From sequence record PZ452582.1: a stretch of DNA of 64,000 bases; one strand, 5' to 3'. The DNA is from a phage. The position numbers were made by a program, and so were the translations under genes. The notes beneath the pieces are model-generated. The model did not search any database and was not told the origin of the DNA. It saw nothing but the letters and a program-made list of their open reading frames with translations. Positions 1,583 to 25,227 of the stretch are shown piece after piece (the stretch's first letter is position 1; each line of letters starts with the position of its first letter).

Positions 1583-2785
1583 ATGAAAGTATGTATTTTT
1601 ATGGCTCGAGGTCTTGAAGGTTGTGGTGTAACTAAATTTTCTCTTGAGCAACGTGATTGGTTTATTAAGAATGGTCATGAAGTAACTTTGGTTTATGCTA
1701 AAGATAAATCATTTACTCGTAATTGCGCGCATGATTATAAATCATTTTCAATTCCGGTTTTATTGGCAAAAGAATATGATAAAACACTTAAGCTGGTAAA
1801 TGATTGTGATATTCTAATTATCAATTCAGTTCCTGCTACTTCGGTTGAAGAAGACACTATTAATAACTATAAAAAAATTATTGATAACATTAAACCTTCT
1901 GTTCGTGTTGTAGTTTATCAACATGACCATTCTTCTCTTTCTTTGCGCCGAAATTTGGGATTAGAAGAAACTGTTCGTCGAGCTGATGTTATTTTTAGCC
2001 ATTCTGATAATGGTGATTTTAATAAAGTTCTGATGAAAGAATGGTATCCTGAAACAGTTTCTCTGTTTGATGATATTGAAGAAGCACCGACAGTATATAA
2101 CTTTCAGCCTCCTATGGATATTGCGAAGGTTCGGTCAACCTACTGGAAAGATGTTTCTGAAATTAACATGAATATCAACCGTTGGATTGGTCGTACGACT
2201 ACATGGAAAGGTTTTTATCAGATGTTTGATTTTCATGAAAAACATCTTAAACCTGCAGGACTAAGTACTATTATGGAAGGTCTGGAACGTTCTCCAGCGT
2301 TCATTCCTATTAAAGAAAAAGGAATTCCATACGAGTATTATCGTCTTCATCAAGTAGACCAAATTAAAATTGCTCCTAATTTGCCAACGCAAATTCTTGA
2401 CCGTTATGTAAATAGCGAAATGCTTGAACGCATGAGTAAATCCGGTTTTGGTTATCAGCTGAGTAAGTTGGACAAAAAATATCTACAGCGTTCTTTAGAA
2501 TATACTCATCTCGAGCTTGGTGCATGCGGAACAATTCCGGTATTTTGGAAATCTACTGGCGAAAATTTAAAATTCCGTGTTGATAATACTCCTTTGACCT
2601 CGCATGATAGCGGTATCATTTGGTTTGATGAAAATGATATGGAATCAACATTTGAACGTATTAAAGAACTGTCATCTGACCGAACTCTTTATGACCGCGA
2701 ACGTGAAAAAGCTTATGAATTTTTGTATCAGCATCAAGATTCAAGCTTCTGCTTTAAAGAACAGTTTGACATTATTACAAAATAA
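1583..2785 (+). CDS. agt: DNA alpha-glucosyltransferase
   Basis: 400-aa ORF MKVCIFMARGLEGCGVTKFSLEQRDWFIKNGHEV...; length and sequence recall of T4 alpha-gt; sits between 55 and 47. Confidence 0.92.
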   Translation: MKVCIFMARGLEGCGVTKFSLEQRDWFIKNGHEVTLVYAKDKSFTRNCAHDYKSFSIPVLLAKEYDKTLKLVNDCDILIINSVPATSVEEDTINNYKKIIDNIKPSVRVVVYQHDHSSLSLRRNLGLEETVRRADVIFSHSDNGDFNKVLMKEWYPETVSLFDDIEEAPTVYNFQPPMDIAKVRSTYWKDVSEINMNINRWIGRTTTWKGFYQMFDFHEKHLKPAGLSTIMEGLERSPAFIPIKEKGIPYEYYRLHQVDQIKIAPNLPTQILDRYVNSEMLERMSKSGFGYQLSKLDKKYLQRSLEYTHLELGACGTIPVFWKSTGENLKFRVDNTPLTSHDSGIIWFDENDMESTFERIKELSSDRTLYDREREKAYEFLYQHQDSSFCFKEQFDIITK

Positions 2786-2965: not shown

Positions 2966-3981
2966 AAATTTTAAATTTAGGTGATTGGCATTTAGGTGTT
3001 AAAGCCGATGATGAGTGGGTTCAATCCATTCAGTTGGATGGAATTAAACAAGCAATAGAATATTCTAAGAAAAATGGAATTACTACATGGATTCAATACG
3101 GCGATATTTTTGATGTGCGAAAAGCAATCACACATAAAACTATGGAGTTCGCTCGTGAAATAGTTCAAATGCTTGATGATGCTGGTATTACCCTACATAC
3201 TGTTGTAGGAAACCATGATATGCACTTTAAAAATACTTTAACTCCAAATGCTTCTACTGAGCTTTTGGCTAAATATCCTAATGTTAAAGTATATGATAAG
3301 CCTACTACAGTAGATTTTGACGGATGTTTGATTGATTTAATTCCTTGGATGTGTGAAGAAAATACTGGTGAAATTCTTGAACATATTAAAACTTCATCCG
3401 CTTCTTTTTGTGTTGGTCACTGGGAACTGAATGGGTTTTATTTTTATAAAGGAATGAAATCTCACGGTCTTGAACCTGATTTCCTTAAGACTTATAAAGA
3501 GGTGTGGTCTGGTCACTTCCATACTATCTCTGAGGCTGCTAACGTCAGATATATTGGGACACCATGGACACTAACTGCAGGTGACGAGAATGACCCTCGT
3601 GGGTTCTGGATGTTTGATACAGAAACAGAACGAATGGAATTTATTCCAAACAATACTACCTGGCATCGTAGAATTCATTATCCATTTAAAGGAAAAATTG
3701 ACTATAAAGATTTTACAAATCTATCAGTACGTGTTATAGTAACTGAAGTAGACAAAAATCTAACGAAGTTCGAATCTGAACTAGAAAAAGTTGTGCATTC
3801 ATTACGAGTTGTGTCAAAAATTGATAACTCTGTCGAGTCAGATGACAGTGAAGAAGTTGAAGTTCAATCTCTTCAGACGTTAATGGAAGAATACATTAAT
3901 GCAATTCCAGACATCACTGATTCTGACCGTGAAGCACTTATTCAATATGCGAATCAGCTATATGTAGAGGCAACACAATGA
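2962..3981 (+). CDS. 47: gp47 recombination endonuclease subunit (Mre11-like)
   Basis: 339 aa, MKILNLGDWHLG phosphoesterase N-terminus, GNHDMH motif; T4 gp47 length. Confidence 0.93.
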   Translation: MKILNLGDWHLGVKADDEWVQSIQLDGIKQAIEYSKKNGITTWIQYGDIFDVRKAITHKTMEFAREIVQMLDDAGITLHTVVGNHDMHFKNTLTPNASTELLAKYPNVKVYDKPTTVDFDGCLIDLIPWMCEENTGEILEHIKTSSASFCVGHWELNGFYFYKGMKSHGLEPDFLKTYKEVWSGHFHTISEAANVRYIGTPWTLTAGDENDPRGFWMFDTETERMEFIPNNTTWHRRIHYPFKGKIDYKDFTNLSVRVIVTEVDKNLTKFESELEKVVHSLRVVSKIDNSVESDDSEEVEVQSLQTLMEEYINAIPDITDSDREALIQYANQLYVEATQ

Positions 3982-4241: not shown

Positions 4242-4428
4242 CATTAATGATGAATTCATAGCAAACATTGATTATACCGAAGAAGATTCTAGATATGTTG
4301 GAATAATTTATATTACATCAAAAACAGCACAAGGCGTTGTTTGCATGGCTGAATTTGATGAATACTTTTTAGATTATGATGATATGATAGAATGGTCTAA
4401 AAGATACATTAAAAGGAATCTTTTGTGA
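4213..4428 (+). CDS. hypothetical protein; N-terminus MHTVKFSTFDINDEF
   Basis: ATG at 4213 within track ORF 4165-4428; shares a 19-bp repeat with the start of the next gene. Confidence 0.35.
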   Translation: MHTVKFSTFDINDEFIANIDYTEEDSRYVGIIYITSKTAQGVVCMAEFDEYFLDYDDMIEWSKRYIKRNLL

Positions 4429-5279
4429 AGAATTTTAAACTTGACATTAATGATGAATTTTTAATAAAGGAATTAGTTGAAAAATTAGCGTTGAGTGAAG
4501 AAGACGCCAAGTCTTACATTAATTTTATTTCTATGAATTCAACTGTTAAAACTCCAGGTAAAACGGAAGCACATCACGTGCTTCCTAAATCAATATTTCC
4601 TGAATATTTAAAATCTACATGGAATTTAGTTAATTTAAGTCATTTTAATCATTTTAAAGCACATTTCTTATTAGCAAAAGGTAAAAATGGAAAAATGCTA
4701 AATGCTTTAAATAGAATGATGTCAGGAAAAACATATAAAAATTTATCTTTAGCCGAAGTTGATTTAATAGCTGCTGAATATAGTTTTATAAAACAAGATG
4801 TAAGTGACACAATATCAAAAAGGCTTCAACAATATTATTCAAATCCGCAAAATAGAAATGCTGCTAGAGAAAGGGCATTAAAATATTTTTCAGTAGCAAA
4901 AAATAGGAAAGATAACAAAGAAAGATTAAATAATTTTAAAACAAAACAAAAAATTTCAATGGCTTCAAGGGAATGGTTTAATAACGAAGAAAATAAAATT
5001 AAACACCAAAAGGCTGTTCGTGCTGCTTTATCAAAACCTGAATATAAAATAGCTATATCAAATTCAGTAGCTGCTAGTTGGAAAAATCCGGAGATTAGAA
5101 AAGCTCATATAGCATCTCGACGAAAAGGCTATCATTGGGATAATAAAGATAAATTGTATGAATTGTGGATATCATATAATCGTCCTAAACATGTGATGTT
5201 TAGGAAAATGTTAGTTAAGAATGGATATCCAATAGAGGCTTCATTACAGGCTTTAGTTAAAGAATTTTCTTCATTGTGA
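4425..5279 (+). CDS. HNH-family homing endonuclease-like protein
   Basis: 284 aa; EAHHVLPKS...N...HFNHFKAH His-Me finger pattern; basic C-terminal tail; GTG start at 4425 or ATG near 4530. Confidence 0.65.
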   Translation: MKNFKLDINDEFLIKELVEKLALSEEDAKSYINFISMNSTVKTPGKTEAHHVLPKSIFPEYLKSTWNLVNLSHFNHFKAHFLLAKGKNGKMLNALNRMMSGKTYKNLSLAEVDLIAAEYSFIKQDVSDTISKRLQQYYSNPQNRNAARERALKYFSVAKNRKDNKERLNNFKTKQKISMASREWFNNEENKIKHQKAVRAALSKPEYKIAISNSVAASWKNPEIRKAHIASRRKGYHWDNKDKLYELWISYNRPKHVMFRKMLVKNGYPIEASLQALVKEFSSL

Positions 5280-7230: not shown

Positions 7231-7620
7231 ATGACTAAAATTACTGTGAATTATACTGTTGATGTAAAAGATATTCAGCCAAAACACGTGCGTTCTGAAT
7301 CAAATCCACAAAACCAAAATAAAATTCGTCGAGCATGGGTTTTGTCTCTTTCTGATAACGCAATGGAAGTTATTCAGAACAAAATTAAATCTGCACCTGC
7401 TCGTCATGCGTATTATGAAGCTATCGATCGTGAAGTAAGTAATAAATGGATTGAACTAATGCGCAAACATACTACAGAATCCCTAAATGCCGGTGCTAAA
7501 TTTATTATGACTTCATGTGGTGAACGCCTTGAAGATGAATATTGCGGTAATGCAGATGAACGTCTAATTGTTGCTGCTCAAATTGTTGCCGAAACAATTG
7601 TGGCCGAGTTTAATAAATGA
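7231..7620 (+). CDS. rpbA: RNA polymerase-binding protein RpbA (putative)
   Basis: 129 aa, immediately upstream of the gene 45 region as in T4; assigned by position and length. Confidence 0.7.
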
Positions 7621-8504
7621 ATTTAGTATATCTTATTAGCTTTCCAGAGCGGGAAGCTAAAAATATTTTTCCGTGTTATTATATAGGTTCAAAAATTAAC
7701 GCAATTTTCGATGGAACAAATATAATTGATTCAGCTGGAAAGATTTATACTGGAAGCGTGTCATCGAGTTATAGCGATGAATATTTTGAACTTATTAAAA
7801 CCACTAAATATACCGTCAAAATTTTAGCTGAAACTATATTAGATCCAAGAAAATTGGAGAGATTTTTTCAATTAAAAGTTAAAGCAAAAAGTAATATAAA
7901 ATATTTTAATAAAGCATACGCAGATGAAAATACTTTAATTGGTGCTAAAGGATATGGAACATATAAAAATGTTTTAACTGGAAAAATTGTAAAGCTTTCG
8001 CAATCTGAAATTACGCCTGAGTATGTCGGTATTCGTAAAGGTTACAAACATAGTTCTGAAGTAAAATACAAAATATCTAATTCAATGAAGAATCACTGGA
8101 CCGATGAGAAAAAGCTTAAACTCTCAAATAAGATGAAATTGAAATATCTTGATTGTAGTTATGCTAAAAAGTTTAGTGATATAATGAATTCAGAAAGTGT
8201 AAGATCAAAAATTTCTAAATCTCAAAAAGAATTATGGAATAATGCTGAAAGAAGACAGAGAGCTTCAATTCAAGCAACTGTTAGAAATAATTTACCGGAA
8301 TTCAAATCAAAATTTAGAAAATCTAAAGCTAGAGGAACTTGGATTGAACATGAAGATGAATTAAAATCTTTATGGCATGCTTACGGAAAACCAAGTTATA
8401 ATAAATTTCGTAAAATTGCAGTAGCTAATGGGTTTAACGACGAATCTTATCAGGGTGCTGTACGGTCCTGGTCTAACTATTATGTAAATAGGAAATTGAA
8501 ATGA
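7617..8504 (+). CDS. GIY-YIG-family homing endonuclease-like protein (Seg-like)
   Basis: 295 aa; N-terminal VYLIS...YYIGSK motif; basic repeat-containing C-terminal tail. Confidence 0.6.
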
Positions 8505-11433: not shown

Positions 11434-14130
11434 ATGAAAGAATTTTATATCTCTATTGAAACAGTCGGAAATAACATTGTTGAACGTTATATTGATGAAA
11501 ACGGAAAGGAACGTACTCGTGAAGTAGAATATCTTCCGACTATGTTTAGGCATTGTAAGGAAGAGTCAAAATACAAAGACATCTATGGTAAAAACTGCGC
11601 TCCTCAAAAATTTCCATCAATGAAAGATGCTCGAGATTGGATGAAGCGAATGGAAGACATCGGTCTCGAAGCTCTCGGTATGAACGATTTTAAACTCGCT
11701 TATATCAGTGATACATATGGTTCAGAAATTGTTTATGACCGAAAATTTGTTCGTGTAGCTAACTGTGACATTGAGGTTACTGGTGATAAATTTCCTGACC
11801 CAATGAAAGCTGAATATGAAATTGATGCTATCACTCATTACGATTCAATTGATGATCGTTTTTATGTTTTCGACCTTTTGAATTCAATGTATGGTTCAGT
11901 ATCAAAATGGGATGCAAAGTTAGCTGCTAAGCTTGACTGTGAAGGTGGTGATGAAGTTCCTCAAGAAATTCTTGACCGAGTAATTTATATGCCATTCGAT
12001 AACGAGCGTGATATGCTCATGGAATATATCAATCTCTGGGAACAGAAACGACCTGCTATTTTTACTGGTTGGAATATTGAGGGATTTGACGTTCCGTATA
12101 TCATGAATCGCGTTAAAATGGTTCTCGGTGAACGTAGTATGAAACGCTTCTCTCCAATCGGTCGAGTAAAATCTAAACTAATTCAAAATATGTACGGTAG
12201 CAAAGAAATTTATTCTATTGATGGCGTATCTATTCTTGATTATTTAGATTTGTACAAGAAATTCGCTTTTACTAATTTGCCGTCATTCTCTTTGGAATCA
12301 GTTGCTCAACATGAAACCAAAAAAGGTAAATTACCATATGATGGCCCTATTAATAAACTTCGTGAGACTAATCATCAACGATACATTAGTTATAACATCA
12401 TTGACGTAGAATCAGTTCAAGCAATTGATAAAATTCGCGGGTTTATCGATCTAGTTTTAAGTATGTCTTATTATGCTAAAATGCCTTTTTCTGGTGTAAT
12501 GAGTCCTATTAAAACTTGGGATGCTATTATTTTTAACTCATTGAAAGGTGAACATAAGGTTATTCCTCAACAAGGTTCGCATGTTAAACAGAGTTTTCCG
12601 GGTGCATTTGTGTTTGAACCTAAACCAATTGCTCGTCGATATATTATGAGTTTTGACTTGACGTCTCTGTATCCGAGCATTATTCGTCAGGTTAACATTA
12701 GTCCTGAGACTATTCGTGGTCAGTTTAAAGTTCATCCAATTCATGAATATATCGCAGGAACAGCTCCTAAACCAAGTGATGAATATTCTTGTTCTCCGAA
12801 TGGATGGATGTATGATAAGCATCAAGAAGGTATCATTCCAAAGGAAATCGCTAAAGTATTTTTCCAGCGTAAAGATTGGAAAAAGAAAATGTTCGCTGAA
12901 GAAATGAATGCCGAAGCTATTAAAAAGATTATTATGAAAGGCGCAGGGTCTTGTTCAACTAAACCTGAAGTTGAACGATATGTTAAGTTCAGTGATGATT
13001 TCTTAAATGAATTATCGAATTACACTGAATCTGTTCTTAATAGTCTGATCGAAGAATGTGAAAAAGCAGCTACACTTGCTAACACAAATCAGCTGAACCG
13101 TAAAATTCTTATTAACAGTCTTTATGGTGCTCTTGGTAATATTCATTTCCGTTACTATGATTTGCGAAATGCTACTGCTATCACAATTTTCGGCCAAGTT
13201 GGTATTCAGTGGATTGCTCGTAAAATTAATGAATATCTGAATAAAGTATGCGGAACTAATGGCGAAGATTTCATTGCAGCAGGTGATACTGATTCGGTAT
13301 ATGTTTGTGTAGATAAAGTTATTGAAAAAGTTGGTCTTGACCGATTCAAAGAGCAGAACGATTTAGTTGAATTCATGAATCAGTTCGGTAAGAAAAAAAT
13401 GGAACCGATGATTGATGTTGCATATCGTGAGTTATGTGATTATATGAATAACCGCGAGCATCTGATGCATATGGACCGTGAAGCTATTTCTTGCCCTCCG
13501 CTTGGTTCAAAGGGTGTCGGTGGATTTTGGAAAGCGAAAAAGCGTTATGCTCTGAACGTTTATGATATGGAAGATAAGCGATTTGCTGAACCGCATCTAA
13601 AAATCATGGGTATGGAAACTCAGCAAAGTTCAACGCCTAAAGCGGTTCAAGAAGCTCTCGAAGAAAGTATTCGTCGTATTCTTCAGGAAGGTGAAGAGTC
13701 TGTCCAAGAATATTACAAAAACTTCGAGAAAGAATATCGTCAACTTGACTATAAAGTTATTGCTGAAGTAAAAACTGCGAACGATATAGCGAAATATGAT
13801 GATAAAGGTTGGCCAGGATTTAAATGCCCGTTCCATATTCGTGGGGTGCTAACTTATCGTCGAGCTGTTAGCGGTTTAGGTGTAGCTCCAATTTTGGATG
13901 GAAATAAAGTAATGGTTCTTCCATTGCGTGAAGGAAATCCATTTGGTGACAAGTGCATTGCTTGGCCGTCGGGTACAGAACTTCCAAAAGAAATTCGTTC
14001 TGACGTACTGTCTTGGATTGACTACTCAACTTTGTTCCAAAAATCGTTTGTTAAACCGCTTGCAGGCATGTGTGAATCGGCTGGTATGGACTATGAAGAA
14101 AAAGCTTCGTTAGACTTCCTGTTTGGCTGA
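11434..14130 (+). CDS. 43: gp43 DNA polymerase (family B)
   Basis: 898 aa; exonuclease and polymerase motifs (YGG-like, DTDS); T4 gp43 length. Confidence 0.96.
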   Translation: MKEFYISIETVGNNIVERYIDENGKERTREVEYLPTMFRHCKEESKYKDIYGKNCAPQKFPSMKDARDWMKRMEDIGLEALGMNDFKLAYISDTYGSEIVYDRKFVRVANCDIEVTGDKFPDPMKAEYEIDAITHYDSIDDRFYVFDLLNSMYGSVSKWDAKLAAKLDCEGGDEVPQEILDRVIYMPFDNERDMLMEYINLWEQKRPAIFTGWNIEGFDVPYIMNRVKMVLGERSMKRFSPIGRVKSKLIQNMYGSKEIYSIDGVSILDYLDLYKKFAFTNLPSFSLESVAQHETKKGKLPYDGPINKLRETNHQRYISYNIIDVESVQAIDKIRGFIDLVLSMSYYAKMPFSGVMSPIKTWDAIIFNSLKGEHKVIPQQGSHVKQSFPGAFVFEPKPIARRYIMSFDLTSLYPSIIRQVNISPETIRGQFKVHPIHEYIAGTAPKPSDEYSCSPNGWMYDKHQEGIIPKEIAKVFFQRKDWKKKMFAEEMNAEAIKKIIMKGAGSCSTKPEVERYVKFSDDFLNELSNYTESVLNSLIEECEKAATLANTNQLNRKILINSLYGALGNIHFRYYDLRNATAITIFGQVGIQWIARKINEYLNKVCGTNGEDFIAAGDTDSVYVCVDKVIEKVGLDRFKEQNDLVEFMNQFGKKKMEPMIDVAYRELCDYMNNREHLMHMDREAISCPPLGSKGVGGFWKAKKRYALNVYDMEDKRFAEPHLKIMGMETQQSSTPKAVQEALEESIRRILQEGEESVQEYYKNFEKEYRQLDYKVIAEVKTANDIAKYDDKGWPGFKCPFHIRGVLTYRRAVSGLGVAPILDGNKVMVLPLREGNPFGDKCIAWPSGTELPKEIRSDVLSWIDYSTLFQKSFVKPLAGMCESAGMDYEEKASLDFLFG

Positions 14131-14143
14131 TAGAATAAATCTA

Positions 14144-14164
14144 GGGACCTCCGGGTCCCTTTTT
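14144..14164 (+). terminator. intrinsic terminator GGGACC-TCCG-GGTCCC-TTTTT
   Basis: 6-bp GC stem followed by 5 T, just after gene 43 stop. Confidence 0.75.
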
Positions 14165-14233
14165 CATACAAGTAATATAAATCTATACTTATGAAAAACA
14201 GATGATTCTGGACCTTTAGAATTCCCTAAAAAA

Positions 14234-14299
14234 TTTTCACAAAACTGTTTACAAGACTGTTCTTCCATGGTACTATACAACTATCAACTACTGATACAG
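14234..14299 (+). promoter_or_regulatory. early promoter cassette (PeSL-type)
   Basis: GTTTAC 14247-14252, 17-nt spacer, TACTAT 14271-14276, then conserved leader ATCAACTACTGATACAG. Confidence 0.6.
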
Positions 14300-14313
14300 A
14301 TTTGGAGAATAAA

Positions 14314-14550
14314 ATGAAAATTGTTATGGGATGCTTAGCAGTTTGTTTAGTTGCATTAGCAGCAGTTCCATTTGTTAGTGTTGAAAATGATACTCAACCT
14401 GCGATTGAATCTAGCACCGTTATTCACACTAATGGTAAAATATCAGTTAAAATTGATGATAATCTTCATGTGAATACAAATGGATCTTTAGGTGTGCAAA
14501 TGGGTAATACCTGCATAAGCACTACTGGAGTAATTACTACTTGCATTTGA
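14314..14550 (+). CDS. small secreted or membrane protein
   Basis: 78 aa from ATG 14314; hydrophobic N-terminus MKIVMGCLAVCLVALAAVPFVS. Confidence 0.5.
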   Translation: MKIVMGCLAVCLVALAAVPFVSVENDTQPAIESSTVIHTNGKISVKIDDNLHVNTNGSLGVQMGNTCISTTGVITTCI

Positions 14551-14560
14551 GGAAATTATT

Positions 14561-14941
14561 ATGAAAATCGCTATTTTGGTTATTGCATTAGGTCTTACTG
14601 GTTGTGTAGCTCAAGGACCGGTAGTAAATCAGTCTGATGTAGGAAAAATTGTAAACTGTTCAAGCAAATTTTATAATCCTAATGTCAAGTGTTATAAAGA
14701 AGCTCCAAAGCAAACAGTAGAACAAATGCAGGCGAATTTTGACGAAGCTATTCGTCCAGATGAATCTGCTCAAGCATATCGTAATTCGGATGTAATTACA
14801 CGCGAAGAAAAAATTGAAAATTACTGCGCCGAGCTTTGGGCTAATTGGGCTAATAATTACCAATGGCGTACTGGTAAAAATGCTCCGATGGAGTATGTAG
14901 TGAATTCTTATAATTCATGTGTAAAAAATTTGACTAAGTGA
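14561..14941 (+). CDS. putative lipoprotein
   Basis: 126 aa; signal peptide with lipobox LTGC (MKIAILVIALGLTGCVAQ). Confidence 0.5.
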   Translation: MKIAILVIALGLTGCVAQGPVVNQSDVGKIVNCSSKFYNPNVKCYKEAPKQTVEQMQANFDEAIRPDESAQAYRNSDVITREEKIENYCAELWANWANNYQWRTGKNAPMEYVVNSYNSCVKNLTK

Positions 14942-14948
14942 GGAAAAT

Positions 14949-15263
14949 ATGGAAACTTTAGTAGCAGGTTCAATTTTTATGGTTTTAGTTTCAGGTGTGT
15001 TGGCTATTATTATATACATGCTTCCATGGTTTATTGCTTTGATGCGTGGGTCAAAATCGACAGTAGGAATCTTTTTCACATCTTTACTGTTTAACTGGTC
15101 AATTATTGGTTGGTTTATTACATTTATTTGGTCAATTGCGGGTGAAACTAAAAAGTCTGCACAACCAAATCAGGTAATTATCATCAGAGAGAGAAGGAAT
15201 GAAAAGCAAAATTATAGCAGTGTTGCTTTTAATCTTGATGATTATAATAAGTATATACTATAG
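14949..15263 (+). CDS. small integral membrane protein (possible Imm-like exclusion protein)
   Basis: 104 aa with two hydrophobic helices; lies between genes 43 and 42 where T4 imm sits. Confidence 0.5.
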   Translation: METLVAGSIFMVLVSGVLAIIIYMLPWFIALMRGSKSTVGIFFTSLLFNWSIIGWFITFIWSIAGETKKSAQPNQVIIIRERRNEKQNYSSVAFNLDDYNKYIL

Positions 15264-15355
15264 TGTAACGGTTCCTCTTATGATTCCGACTATTATTTTA
15301 GGTTGGAGCTTATTACTGTTACAAGTTAAATATGAATGTATCAATTGAGGTTTAA

Positions 15356-16096
15356 ATGATTAGTGACTCTATGACAGTTGAAGAAATCCGTCTTCATTTG
15401 GGGCTTGCATTAAAAGAAAAAGATTTCGTAGTTGATAAAACCGGTGTTAAAACTATTGAAATTATTGGCGCATCATTTGTAGCAGATGAACCGTTTATTT
15501 TTGGTGCTCTTAATGATGAATACATTCAGCGTGAACTTGAATGGTATAAATCTAAGAGCTTGTTCGTTAAAGATATTCCAGGTGAAACACCGAAGATTTG
15601 GCAACAAGTAGCATCTTCTAAAGGCGAAATTAACTCGAACTATGGTTGGGCTATTTGGTCAGAAGATAACTATGCCCAGTATGATATGTGTTTAGCTGAA
15701 CTTGGTCAAAATCCTGATTCTCGACGTGGTATCATGATTTATACTCGTCCATCCATGCAATTTGACTACAATAAAGATGGTATGTCAGATTTCATGTGTA
15801 CTAATACAGTACAGTACCTGATTCGTGATAAGAAAGTCAATGCAGTAGTAAGCATGCGCTCAAATGACGTGGTCTTCGGATTCCGTAATGATTATGCATG
15901 GCAAAAATACGTATTAGATAAATTAGTATCTGATTTGAATGCCGGCGATTCATCTCGTCAGTATAAAGCAGGTTCTATTATATGGAATGTCGGAAGTCTT
16001 CATGTATATTCTCGTCATTTTTACTTGGTTGATCATTGGTGGAATACTGGCGAAACTCATATTGTGAAAAAAGACTATAAAGGTGAGTGGAAATGA
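15356..16096 (+). CDS. 42: gp42 dCMP hydroxymethylase
   Basis: 246 aa MISDSMTVEEIRLHLGLALKEKDF...; T4 gp42 length; thymidylate-synthase-like fold. Confidence 0.93.
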   Translation: MISDSMTVEEIRLHLGLALKEKDFVVDKTGVKTIEIIGASFVADEPFIFGALNDEYIQRELEWYKSKSLFVKDIPGETPKIWQQVASSKGEINSNYGWAIWSEDNYAQYDMCLAELGQNPDSRRGIMIYTRPSMQFDYNKDGMSDFMCTNTVQYLIRDKKVNAVVSMRSNDVVFGFRNDYAWQKYVLDKLVSDLNAGDSSRQYKAGSIIWNVGSLHVYSRHFYLVDHWWNTGETHIVKKDYKGEWK

Positions 16097-16935
16097 TTCA
16101 ATTCGTAATTCCAAGTTATCAGCGTGTCAGGGCAGTTTCTGCCCTTGATATGTTTCCGACTGATTATGAACCGCATATTGTAGTGCGTGAACATGAAGAA
16201 AAAGCTTATCATGACGCTTATGGGTCTAGAGCTAAAATTATAACTATTCCTGATGATGTAAACGGAATTGCCGGTACTCGTAAAGCAATTACCGATATAT
16301 ATGCAGGTCAACGAATCTGGATGATTGACGATGATACTACTATTCGTATGAGTTCAATGCGAAAAAGAGATGATCGTCGTTGCGTAGATAAAGTCAATCA
16401 ATTGACTCGTGAACAGTTCTATGAATTGATTCAATATGTTGAGGATGCCATGGATTGCGGGTATTATCATGGCCATGCTCGTCTACCTATTTTTAAAATT
16501 ACTTCATCTTGGGGTAATTATCGTGAAAATTCATATGGATTCACGAATACATGGTATGACCTCGGAAAACTTACGACAGAACAAATTGGGTATGGAAAAA
16601 TTGATTTATGCGAAGATATGTATGCATTTCTCAATTTAATTAATCAAGGTTATCCGCATTTGGCCTTGTTCAAATATCTAGTTGTATCTGGAAAAGCACA
16701 AGCTCCTGGCGGGTGCAGTTCAATTCGTAGTAATTCTAAACATAATAGAGCGCTTGAGCAGATTAATAGAGAGTTTCCAGAGCAAGCTCGTTGGAAAACT
16801 TCTAATATTGAAAAACGAAAATCGTTGGGTGAAGAAGACGAACCATTAAAGGTTCTTCGCATGTGCGTTTCACGTAAAGAAAAATCAGAAGCATTTCATA
16901 AGTTTAATGCTATTCATCCAATAGCAGTTGATTAA
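16093..16935 (+). CDS. putative glycosyltransferase (DXD motif) in the beta-gt locus
   Basis: 280 aa from ATG 16093 (ATGA overlap with gene 42 stop); RIWMIDDDTTIR DXD-like motif; not the 351-aa T4 beta-gt. Confidence 0.6.
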   Translation: MIQFVIPSYQRVRAVSALDMFPTDYEPHIVVREHEEKAYHDAYGSRAKIITIPDDVNGIAGTRKAITDIYAGQRIWMIDDDTTIRMSSMRKRDDRRCVDKVNQLTREQFYELIQYVEDAMDCGYYHGHARLPIFKITSSWGNYRENSYGFTNTWYDLGKLTTEQIGYGKIDLCEDMYAFLNLINQGYPHLALFKYLVVSGKAQAPGGCSSIRSNSKHNRALEQINREFPEQARWKTSNIEKRKSLGEEDEPLKVLRMCVSRKEKSEAFHKFNAIHPIAVD

Positions 16936-17012
16936 TGCCTAAATTTATTGTGTTATAATTACTCTATCTTTAACCAGTGAGGAAAATATAATGATGCCTA
17001 TGGAAAAAATGA

Positions 17013-18194
17013 ATGTCTATTGCAGATTTAAAATCCCGTTTGATTAAAGCTTCCACTTCTAAAATGACTGCTGAACTGACTACATCTAAATTCTTTAATG
17101 AAAAGGATGTAATTCGTACAAAAATTCCAATGCTTAATATTGCTATTTCTGGTGCGATTGATGGCGGCATGCAGTCTGGTTTAACTATTTTCGCAGGGCC
17201 TTCTAAACACTTTAAATCAAATATGTCTTTGACTATGGTTGCGGCATATTTGAACAAATATCCTGACGCGGTTTGTCTATTCTATGATAGTGAATTTGGT
17301 ATTACTCCAGCTTATTTGCGATCCATGGGAGTTGACCCGGAACGAGTAATTCATACGCCGATTCAGTCAGTTGAACAGCTGAAAATTGATATGGTGAACC
17401 AGCTTGAAGCTATTGAGCGTGGTGAAAAGGTTATTGTATTCATCGACTCAATTGGTAATATGGCTTCTAAGAAAGAAACGGAAGATGCCTTGAATGAAAA
17501 ATCTGTGGCAGATATGACTCGTGCTAAATCACTGAAGTCATTATTCCGTATTGTTACTCCTTACTTTAGCATTAAAAATATTCCATGTGTTGCGGTTAAC
17601 CATACAATTGAAACAATTGAAATGTTTAGTAAAACCGTGATGACAGGTGGTACAGGCGTAATGTATTCGGCTGATACTGTATTCATTATCGGTAAGCGTC
17701 AGATTAAAGATGGTTCTGATCTTCAGGGGTATCAATTTGTTCTAAATGTAGAAAAATCTCGTACCGTTAAAGAAAAAAGTAAATTCTTTATTGATGTTAA
17801 ATTTGACGGTGGTATCGATCCTTATTCTGGATTGTTAGATATGGCTCTAGAATTAGGATTTGTAGTAAAACCTAAAAATGGTTGGTATGCTCGTGAATTT
17901 CTTGACGAAGAAACCGGCGAGATGATTCGCGAAGAAAAATCTTGGCGTGCAAAAGATACTAACTGCACTACATTCTGGGGTCCTTTATTTAAGCATCAAC
18001 CATTCCGAGATGCTATTAAGCGTGCTTATCAGTTAGGTGCTATTGATAGTAATGAAATTGTTGAAGCGGAAGTTGATGAATTAATTAACTCAAAGGTTGA
18101 AAAATTTAAATCCTCAGAAAGTAAAAGTAAATCAGCAGCTGATTTAGAAACTGACCTCGAGCAGTTAAGTGATATGGAAGAATTTAATGAATAA
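17013..18194 (+). CDS. uvsX: UvsX recombinase (RecA-like)
   Basis: 393 aa MSIADLKSRLIKASTSK...; RecA-like Walker A GPSKHFKS; position between 42 locus and 40/41. Confidence 0.95.
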   Translation: MSIADLKSRLIKASTSKMTAELTTSKFFNEKDVIRTKIPMLNIAISGAIDGGMQSGLTIFAGPSKHFKSNMSLTMVAAYLNKYPDAVCLFYDSEFGITPAYLRSMGVDPERVIHTPIQSVEQLKIDMVNQLEAIERGEKVIVFIDSIGNMASKKETEDALNEKSVADMTRAKSLKSLFRIVTPYFSIKNIPCVAVNHTIETIEMFSKTVMTGGTGVMYSADTVFIIGKRQIKDGSDLQGYQFVLNVEKSRTVKEKSKFFIDVKFDGGIDPYSGLLDMALELGFVVKPKNGWYAREFLDEETGEMIREEKSWRAKDTNCTTFWGPLFKHQPFRDAIKRAYQLGAIDSNEIVEAEVDELINSKVEKFKSSESKSKSAADLETDLEQLSDMEEFNE

Positions 18195-23308: not shown

Positions 23309-24648
<1,340 letters not shown>

Positions 24649-24708: not shown

Positions 24709-25227
24709 ATGGCTCACTTTAATGAATGTGCTCATTTGATCGAAGGTGTTGATAAAGCAAATCGTGCATATGCTGAGAATATTATGCACAATATTGACCC
24801 ACTGCAGGTTATGCTTGACATGCAGCGGCATTTACAGATTCGTTTGGCTAATGATAAACCAGAAACAAATCGTCATCCTGATTCACTTGAAACTGCAGGA
24901 GAAGTTCTTGCTTGGTTGCGAAACCAAGACGATTATATCGCAGATGAAACCCGCGAGTTATATACTTCTCTTGGTGGTATGAGTAATGGCGAAAAAGAAG
25001 CTTCTGCTGTATGGAAACCTTGGAAGAAACGTTATTCTGAAATGCAATCCAAGAAAATTCAAGATTTATCTCCCGAAGATCAGCTTGAAATTAAATTTGA
25101 ACTTATTGACCAATTTCATTTTTTCATGAATAAATTTATTGCTCTTGGAATGTCAGCTGAAGAAATCTTTAAACTTTATTACCTGAAAAATGCTGAAAAC
25201 TTCGCTCGTCAAGACCGAGGTTATTAA
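24709..25227 (+). CDS. 56: gp56 dCTPase/dUTPase (MazG-like)
   Basis: 172 aa from ATG 24709 (MAHFNECAHLIEGV...); position after dam as in T4. Confidence 0.9.
   Translation: MAHFNECAHLIEGVDKANRAYAENIMHNIDPLQVMLDMQRHLQIRLANDKPETNRHPDSLETAGEVLAWLRNQDDYIADETRELYTSLGGMSNGEKEASAVWKPWKKRYSEMQSKKIQDLSPEDQLEIKFELIDQFHFFMNKFIALGMSAEEIFKLYYLKNAENFARQDRGY

Follow-up and report, generated by a model that had tools for sequence, protein, structure and literature searches.

The beta-glucosyl-HMC-alpha-glucosyltransferase of the T2/T6 type, which we take to be EC 2.4.1.28, is encoded by a gene named ba-gt, with ggt and g-gt as its other names. The T2 and T6 enzymes (Q06717 and Q06718 in UniProt, according to PMC6024577) add glucose to alpha-glucosyl-hmC, giving the gentiobiosyl base, as described in PMC13216743, in which the T6 enzyme, modelled with AF3, is presented as GT-A and sister to GT2. 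The DNA of a T6 delta-g-gt mutant is reported to carry about 75% alpha-glucosyl-hmC (PMC13160076), and in Tequatrovirus phages having both alpha-gt and the enzyme under its other label, TAGT, the bases hmdC, alpha-glc-hmdC and alpha-gentiobiosyl-hmdC were identified by HPLC/MS (PMC13390438, AEM 2026). The same source describes the position of TAGT as syntenic with the T4 beta-GT and gives about two-thirds gentiobiosyl for TB37, whose closest relative is the phage teqdroes (PMC13390438). The T4 enzyme, b-gt (PF09198), resembles the T2/T6-type enzyme in occupying the slot downstream of gene 42 and, according to the literature, in being an inverting enzyme with UDP-glucose as donor that forms a beta linkage. 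It differs in its fold, which is GT-B as opposed to GT-A, in its length of 351 aa versus 280 aa for the protein studied here, and in its acceptor, which is hmC itself and not alpha-glucosyl-hmC; no sequence similarity between ba-gt and T4 b-gt was found by blastp (E > 2). Published work already covers the ba-gt gene, the class of its fold, the way it replaces T4 beta-gt in a syntenic position and the chemistry that results; the gene is annotated in hundreds of T4-like phages, and its context is an ordinary one.

The window analysed here, a 64,000-nt stretch of phage DNA (PZ452582.1), carries a ba-gt (ggt, TAGT) gene at 16093..16935 on the plus strand, identified from the ORF listing and by homology, which encodes 280 aa and reads directly from an ATG at 16093 to a TAA at 16933-16935. 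As the original prediction had stated, this ORF lies between gene 42 (15356-16096) and uvsX (17013-18194), and the ATGA shared with gene 42 proves on direct reading to be a real start/stop overlap (16093..16096, plus strand), the TGA stop of gene 42 falling at 16094-16096. The overlap is also present in T2 and RB51 and suggests that translation of ba-gt is coupled to that of gene 42, with which it is probably co-transcribed. A Shine-Dalgarno-like GGTGAG at 16082..16087 (plus strand), read from the sequence, is located 5 nt upstream of the ATG within the final codons of gene 42 and may guide initiation at ba-gt. The ATG at 16093 is favoured as the start because the relatives open with MIQF; an alternative GTG at 16087, which would yield 282 aa, was rejected on that ground and also because the Shine-Dalgarno-like site is spaced correctly for the ATG. 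Just inside the gene, 36 nt past the start codon, a perfect 7-bp hairpin (AGGGCAG-TTT-CTGCCCT, 16129-16145, plus strand) covers codons 13-18; it was flagged by a scan as the one terminator-like hairpin inside the ORF, a role set aside since a proper T-run is lacking in its context, and it may influence translation or mRNA stability or be meaningless.

When the 843 nt of the gene were compared by megablast with 50,697 phage records, 475 of these spanned it fully at an identity of at least 90%, which rules against a chance ORF. The best DNA matches are RB51, RB68 and Ac3, each at 99.9%, and the RB51 gene carries the RefSeq name "beta-glucosyl-HMC-alpha-glucosyltransferase" with the note "similar to T2, T6 b-gluc-a-gluc transferases"; the RB51 orthologue is given as 99% identical to the T2 enzyme in PMC6024577. 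The protein of the window is identical to YP_010073979.1 of phage teqdroes, a member of a 485-member cluster at 90%, and the comparison with the T2/T6 beta-alpha-glucosyltransferase gives 98% protein identity to each, with 5 substitutions over 280 aa relative to T2 (from window to T2: R11H, R13G, H40Y, I69M and P251S) and 4 differences in the 261 comparable positions relative to T6. In relation to RB51 and RB68, which are 99.9% identical in DNA, the sole protein difference from RB51 is I69M, the window protein having Ile69 where RB51, T2 and T6 have Met; an effect of this residue on function is unlikely, judged from the alignment, because column 69 varies across the family. The likeness to the T2 and T6 loci extends to the slot between gene 42 and uvsX and to the partners alpha-gt, 42 and 56.

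At the level of families, PHROG 842 matches the protein at 1e-87, and the Pfam family PF20691 (TET-associated glycosyltransferase, TAGT) matches it with 42.6 bits against a gathering cut-off of 27.5, the alignment running from residue 3 to 207 and covering positions 2-205 of the 205 in the profile. The ORF is accordingly related to glycosyltransferases. When 1.84 billion representative proteins were searched exhaustively with HMMER, 317 family clusters were retrieved at E <= 1e-3, mostly far from T-even phages, and conservation was counted over 96 aligned full-length members with identity down to about 20%; TAGT was matched by all 96 of these relatives, and GT2 (PF00535) weakly by 5. Arg11, Asp80, Asp175 and Gly207 are invariant in 96 of 96, Asp79 is found in 94 and Asp81 in 95, and P7, R63, G186, G206 and R212 are also near-invariant. 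The window protein thus has in common with the 96 divergent members of TAGT, beyond the full profile match, the residue R11, the DDD triplet, D175 and the GG motif. It differs from TAGT systems in that its gene is accompanied by alpha-gt and the hydroxymethylase route of gp42 instead of a TET/JBP dioxygenase, and in that the predicted acceptor is the sugar on hmC and not hmC itself.

This last point bears on the idea that the enzyme attaches its sugar straight to bare hmC, as is thought for the TET-associated TAGTs, with alpha-glucosyl-hmC not being its acceptor. Membership of the protein in TAGT by Pfam would agree with this, as would the many TAGT members that are described as having neither alpha-gt nor beta-gt (PMC13216743) and the distance of most of the 317 clusters from T-even phages. 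It has to be noted, however, that T2 and T6 DNAs lack beta-glucosyl-hmC and retain hmC without glucose at about 25%, that deletion of g-gt in T6 converts gentiobiosyl residues to alpha-glucosyl residues and not to hmC (PMC13160076), and that the Durham phages carrying the ba-gt gene are reported to be free of beta-5-glc-mdC (PMC13390438), so that direct transfer to hmC is highly improbable and alpha-glucosyl-hmC is retained here as the acceptor.

Neither phmmer with the protein nor hmmsearch with the 96-sequence profile identified a PDB relative, both returning chance matches only (E >= 0.6), and the fold was therefore examined by prediction. The predicted model consists of a single Rossmann-like alpha/beta/alpha domain that can be superposed on known GT-A enzymes, with structural matches to B4GALNT1, the GT2 beta-1,3-glucosyltransferase AvpGT, GnT-I, GlfT2, the cellulose synthase BcsA, TarS and TarP that align 156-210 residues; a first model, built on a shallow alignment, pointed to the same fold class with lower scores. 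On this predicted structure ba-gt is a single-domain GT-A enzyme, and the GT-A-like DXD glycosyltransferase that had been proposed from the sequence is confirmed by the model and by conservation of the DDD triplet in 94-96 of the 96 relatives. The WMIDDDTTIR motif on which that proposal was built occupies residues 76-85 (nt 16318-16347) and contains the only D-x-D of the protein. Within it, the codons of D79-D80-D81 (16327..16335, plus strand), assigned from conservation and the model, correspond in the predicted structure to where strand 74-78 ends and to the turn that leads into strand 82-90, and by analogy would form the DXD motif that binds metal and nucleotide sugar. The E174-D175 codons (16612..16617, plus strand) encode an "ED" motif in which E174 is present in 78 of the 96 relatives and D175 in all of them; the analogy of GT2 enzymes points to D175 as candidate for the catalytic base in an inverting GT-A reaction. 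The invariant Arg11 (codon 16123..16125, plus strand) belongs to an IPSYQR motif that follows strand beta-1. The GT2-type inverting GT-A enzymes AvpGT (9jma), BcsA (4p00 and 9fmv), TarP (6h1j) and SpsA (1h7l) are similar in this architecture at 6-15% sequence identity; the window enzyme differs from them in acting on a DNA-borne acceptor, and it is not placed in GT2 on sequence grounds.

As had been stated, the window contains all the partner genes that a pathway of this kind would need: alpha-gt, gp42 and gp56. Gene 42 (15356..16096, plus strand), annotated as such in RB51, T2 and T6, encodes the dCMP hydroxymethylase that provides the hmC precursor and is recognized by PF00303 (thymidylate-synthase fold). 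The DNA alpha-glucosyltransferase alpha-gt, which makes the acceptor alpha-glucosyl-hmC, is found at 1583..2785 (plus strand; PF11440, E = 4.3e-237), syntenic with a-gt of T2 and T6, and gene 56 (24709..25227, plus strand) encodes the dCTPase/dUTPase that excludes cytosine from phage DNA, 170 of its 172 residues being identical to those of T6 gp56 (99%). The order 42 - ba-gt - uvsX is common to the window, RB51, T2 and T6. Gene 42 is 95% identical to that of T4 in DNA until about 15 nt before its end, where homology to T4 is lost, to be regained inside uvsX; between these points T4 has b-gt and the homing endonuclease segA, and the window has the 280-aa ba-gt. No T4-type beta-gt was found in the 64-kb window by tblastn with T4 b-gt (E > 1), nor was a ba-gt paralogue found there. 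The gene occupies the T4 beta-gt locus, as the sequence had been taken to indicate.

Downstream of ba-gt, the intergenic spacer before uvsX (16936..17012, plus strand) contains an extended -10 element, TGTTATAAT, at 16951-16959 and a MotA-box-like ATGCCTAAA near -30, which in the light of what is known of T4 middle promoters likely constitute a uvsX middle promoter outside the glycosyltransferase gene. This promoter was not listed by a sigma-70 consensus scan, in which promoter counts over 14100-17200 were near the shuffle expectation, and the window, scanned in full for Rfam families and tRNAs, gave no matches. The window as a whole is that of a mosaic Tequatrovirus, with no single record in the collection covering its first 25 kb at 99% or more. 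Among its other genes are two related to homing endonucleases. A 295-aa ORF at 7617-8504 (plus strand), between rpbA and gene 45 and overlapping the start of the latter by 4 nt, has its PHROG matches among homing endonucleases (phrog_655 at 4e-33) and is without a counterpart at that spot in T2, T6 or RB51; it is probably a mobile insertion of the mob/HNH type. Flanked by 46.1 and gene 46 is a 284-aa ORF (4425-5279, plus strand) with matches to PHROGs of homing endonucleases and HNH proteins (phrog_655 at 8e-45); it is intact in the window and in T6 (T6ORF054) and split into two ORFs in T2. A dam methyltransferase gene (PF02086, E = 6.5e-51) is located at 23869-24648 (plus strand), its start abutted by the stop of a 186-aa ORF of unknown function at 23309-23869 (plus strand; phrog_8706, T2_31 in T2). 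In the Durham collection, phages with a Dam-like gene and another that resembles one for a restriction enzyme are reported to have a lower ratio of gentiobiosyl to alpha-glucosyl residues (1:2:2) than those without (PMC13390438).

Taken with the described systems, these observations lead us to conclude with high confidence that the ORF encodes a T2/T6-type beta-glucosyl-HMC-alpha-glucosyltransferase of the GT-A class that makes gentiobiosyl-hmC by the following pathway. The identification is based on sequence identity, family membership, fold, motif conservation and gene context; what individual residues do in catalysis, the coupling to gene 42 and the gentiobiosylated fraction are added by inference. 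In this pathway, gp56 and gp42 would cause hmdC to replace dC in the phage DNA, and alpha-gt would place an alpha-linked glucose onto most hmC residues. The ba-gt enzyme would then transfer a second glucose from UDP-alpha-D-glucose to the 6-OH of the alpha-glucose through a beta-1,6 link, generating gentiobiosyl-hmC, with D79-D81 (the DXD motif) predicted to hold the divalent metal and the UDP diphosphate and D175 (the ED motif) to be the general base for the hydroxyl of the acceptor. Formation of a beta product from an alpha donor requires inversion at the anomeric carbon, as occurs in GT2 enzymes; this agrees with a GT-A enzyme of a GT2-like kind. DNA modified in this way should be like that of T6 or of the Tequatrovirus phages of the Durham collection, containing hmC, alpha-glucosyl-hmC and gentiobiosyl-hmC, and no beta-glucosyl-hmC.

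The original prediction had proposed a second sugar transfer unlike that of T4, either gentiobiosylation of the T2/T6 type or addition of another sugar; at 98% identity to the T2 and T6 enzymes the first form of the proposal holds, and the second is very unlikely. Transfer of a sugar other than glucose, giving a chemistry unlike that of T2 and T6, has no specific support; donor specificity is not readable from sequence, and Mosigvirus relatives use arabinose, via other enzymes (PMC6024577). Not only the overall identity to the T2/T6 glucosyltransferases but also the conserved residues, all of which are unchanged, stand against it, as does the identity of the protein with that of teqdroes, whose close relative TB37 is reported to make gentiobiosyl-hmC (PMC13390438), and this reading is exceedingly improbable. 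Glucose thus remains the sugar assigned to the second transfer.

How far that transfer proceeds is a different matter, and the gentiobiosylated fraction is unpredictable from sequence because the T2 and T6 enzymes are 98% identical and their DNAs contain about 5% versus about 72% of gentiobiosyl residues. The same enzyme might be weak here, as it is in T2, leaving mostly mono-alpha-glucosyl-hmC and a few percent of gentiobiosyl-hmC. The T2 gene is 98% identical and yet yields only ~5% gentiobiosyl-hmC, as given in PMC6024577 and PMC13160076, and over its first 25 kb the window is matched about as closely by T2 (97.6%) as by any other record. The window protein nevertheless retains the family-invariant Arg11, which is His in T2 alone, and gentiobiosyl levels of 40-67% are reported for those phages with the R11 allele that were measured, the Tequatrovirus set from Durham (PMC13390438), so that weak activity seems unlikely, and an enzyme producing T6-like DNA is the reading carried forward.

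The comparison of alleles brought out differences of some interest in the laboratory phages themselves, the allele of the window being intact, that of T2 having His11, and the two independent T6 records having, respectively, an amber codon and a deletion of one Asp. In T2 (MH751506, locus L003, 15036-15878), residue 11 is His (CAT), where the window and 96 of 96 aligned members have Arg. All eight T2-type (T2/SV76) records have His11, every other close relative inspected has Arg, and the eight are identical to T2 over a 111-nt stretch in which the next-best records are 1 base off; RB14, the one next-best record checked, has Arg11. The R11H change in T2 may represent a hypomorphic allele that explains its low gentiobiose content. 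In the T6 record MH550421 (locus L002, 7138-7980), Gln10 is replaced by a TAG amber codon and the CDS is annotated from Met20, with 261 aa. In the T6 record AP018814/NC_054907 (locus L004, 911-1750), one GAT codon is missing, which reduces DDD to DD in a protein of 279 aa (YP_010067197.1); this T6 sequence is the query used in PMC13216743. The lesions in the T6 records reflect either drifted stocks or sequencing errors. A broader suggestion, which we put forward as tentative and rather doubtful, is that the window allele, with R11, DDD and no stop codon, is the fully active wild type, that the gap between T2 and T6 stems from R11H, and that laboratory stocks of T6 have repeatedly acquired lesions in the gene. 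A connection of R11H with low gentiobiose was not found in those passages of the cited T-even papers that were searched by term. Were the suggestion true, the sixty-year-old difference in gentiobiosyl content between T2 (about 5%) and T6 (about 72%) would be traced to R11H, and the repeated lesions in T6 would suggest that laboratory hosts make the second glucosylation unnecessary or select against it.

A further observation at this locus concerns T4 (NC_000866, locus L006), in which a stretch at about 3232-3256, between b-gt and segA and directly upstream of segA, matches 24 of 25 nt of the last codons and stop of ba-gt (window 16913-16937). The match was obtained by blastn with E = 2.7e-6 in a comparison of 2 kb by 2.9 kb and was also seen by direct reading. 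Directly after the b-gt stop, T4 also has another brief stretch, which matches the leader of uvsX (TATCTTTAACC.GTG). This looks like the relic of an arrangement of the ba-gt type and hints that a ba-gt gene was once present at or beside that spot in the T4 lineage.

Modest new leads come only from the laboratory alleles of T2 and T6 and from the relic in T4, and recognition of ba-gt in this phage, while offering no new biology, provides a prediction that is useful for annotation and for the choice of phages. The pattern of sugars on hmC decides which host defences detect T-even DNA, among them McrBC/McrA, enzymes of the GmrSD/BrxU type, DNA glycosylases of the Brig1 and Brig3 type and some CRISPR-Cas systems, and the presence of ba-gt predicts that this phage would meet them with T6-like gentiobiosyl-hmC DNA and not with the T4-like alpha/beta mono-glucosyl form.
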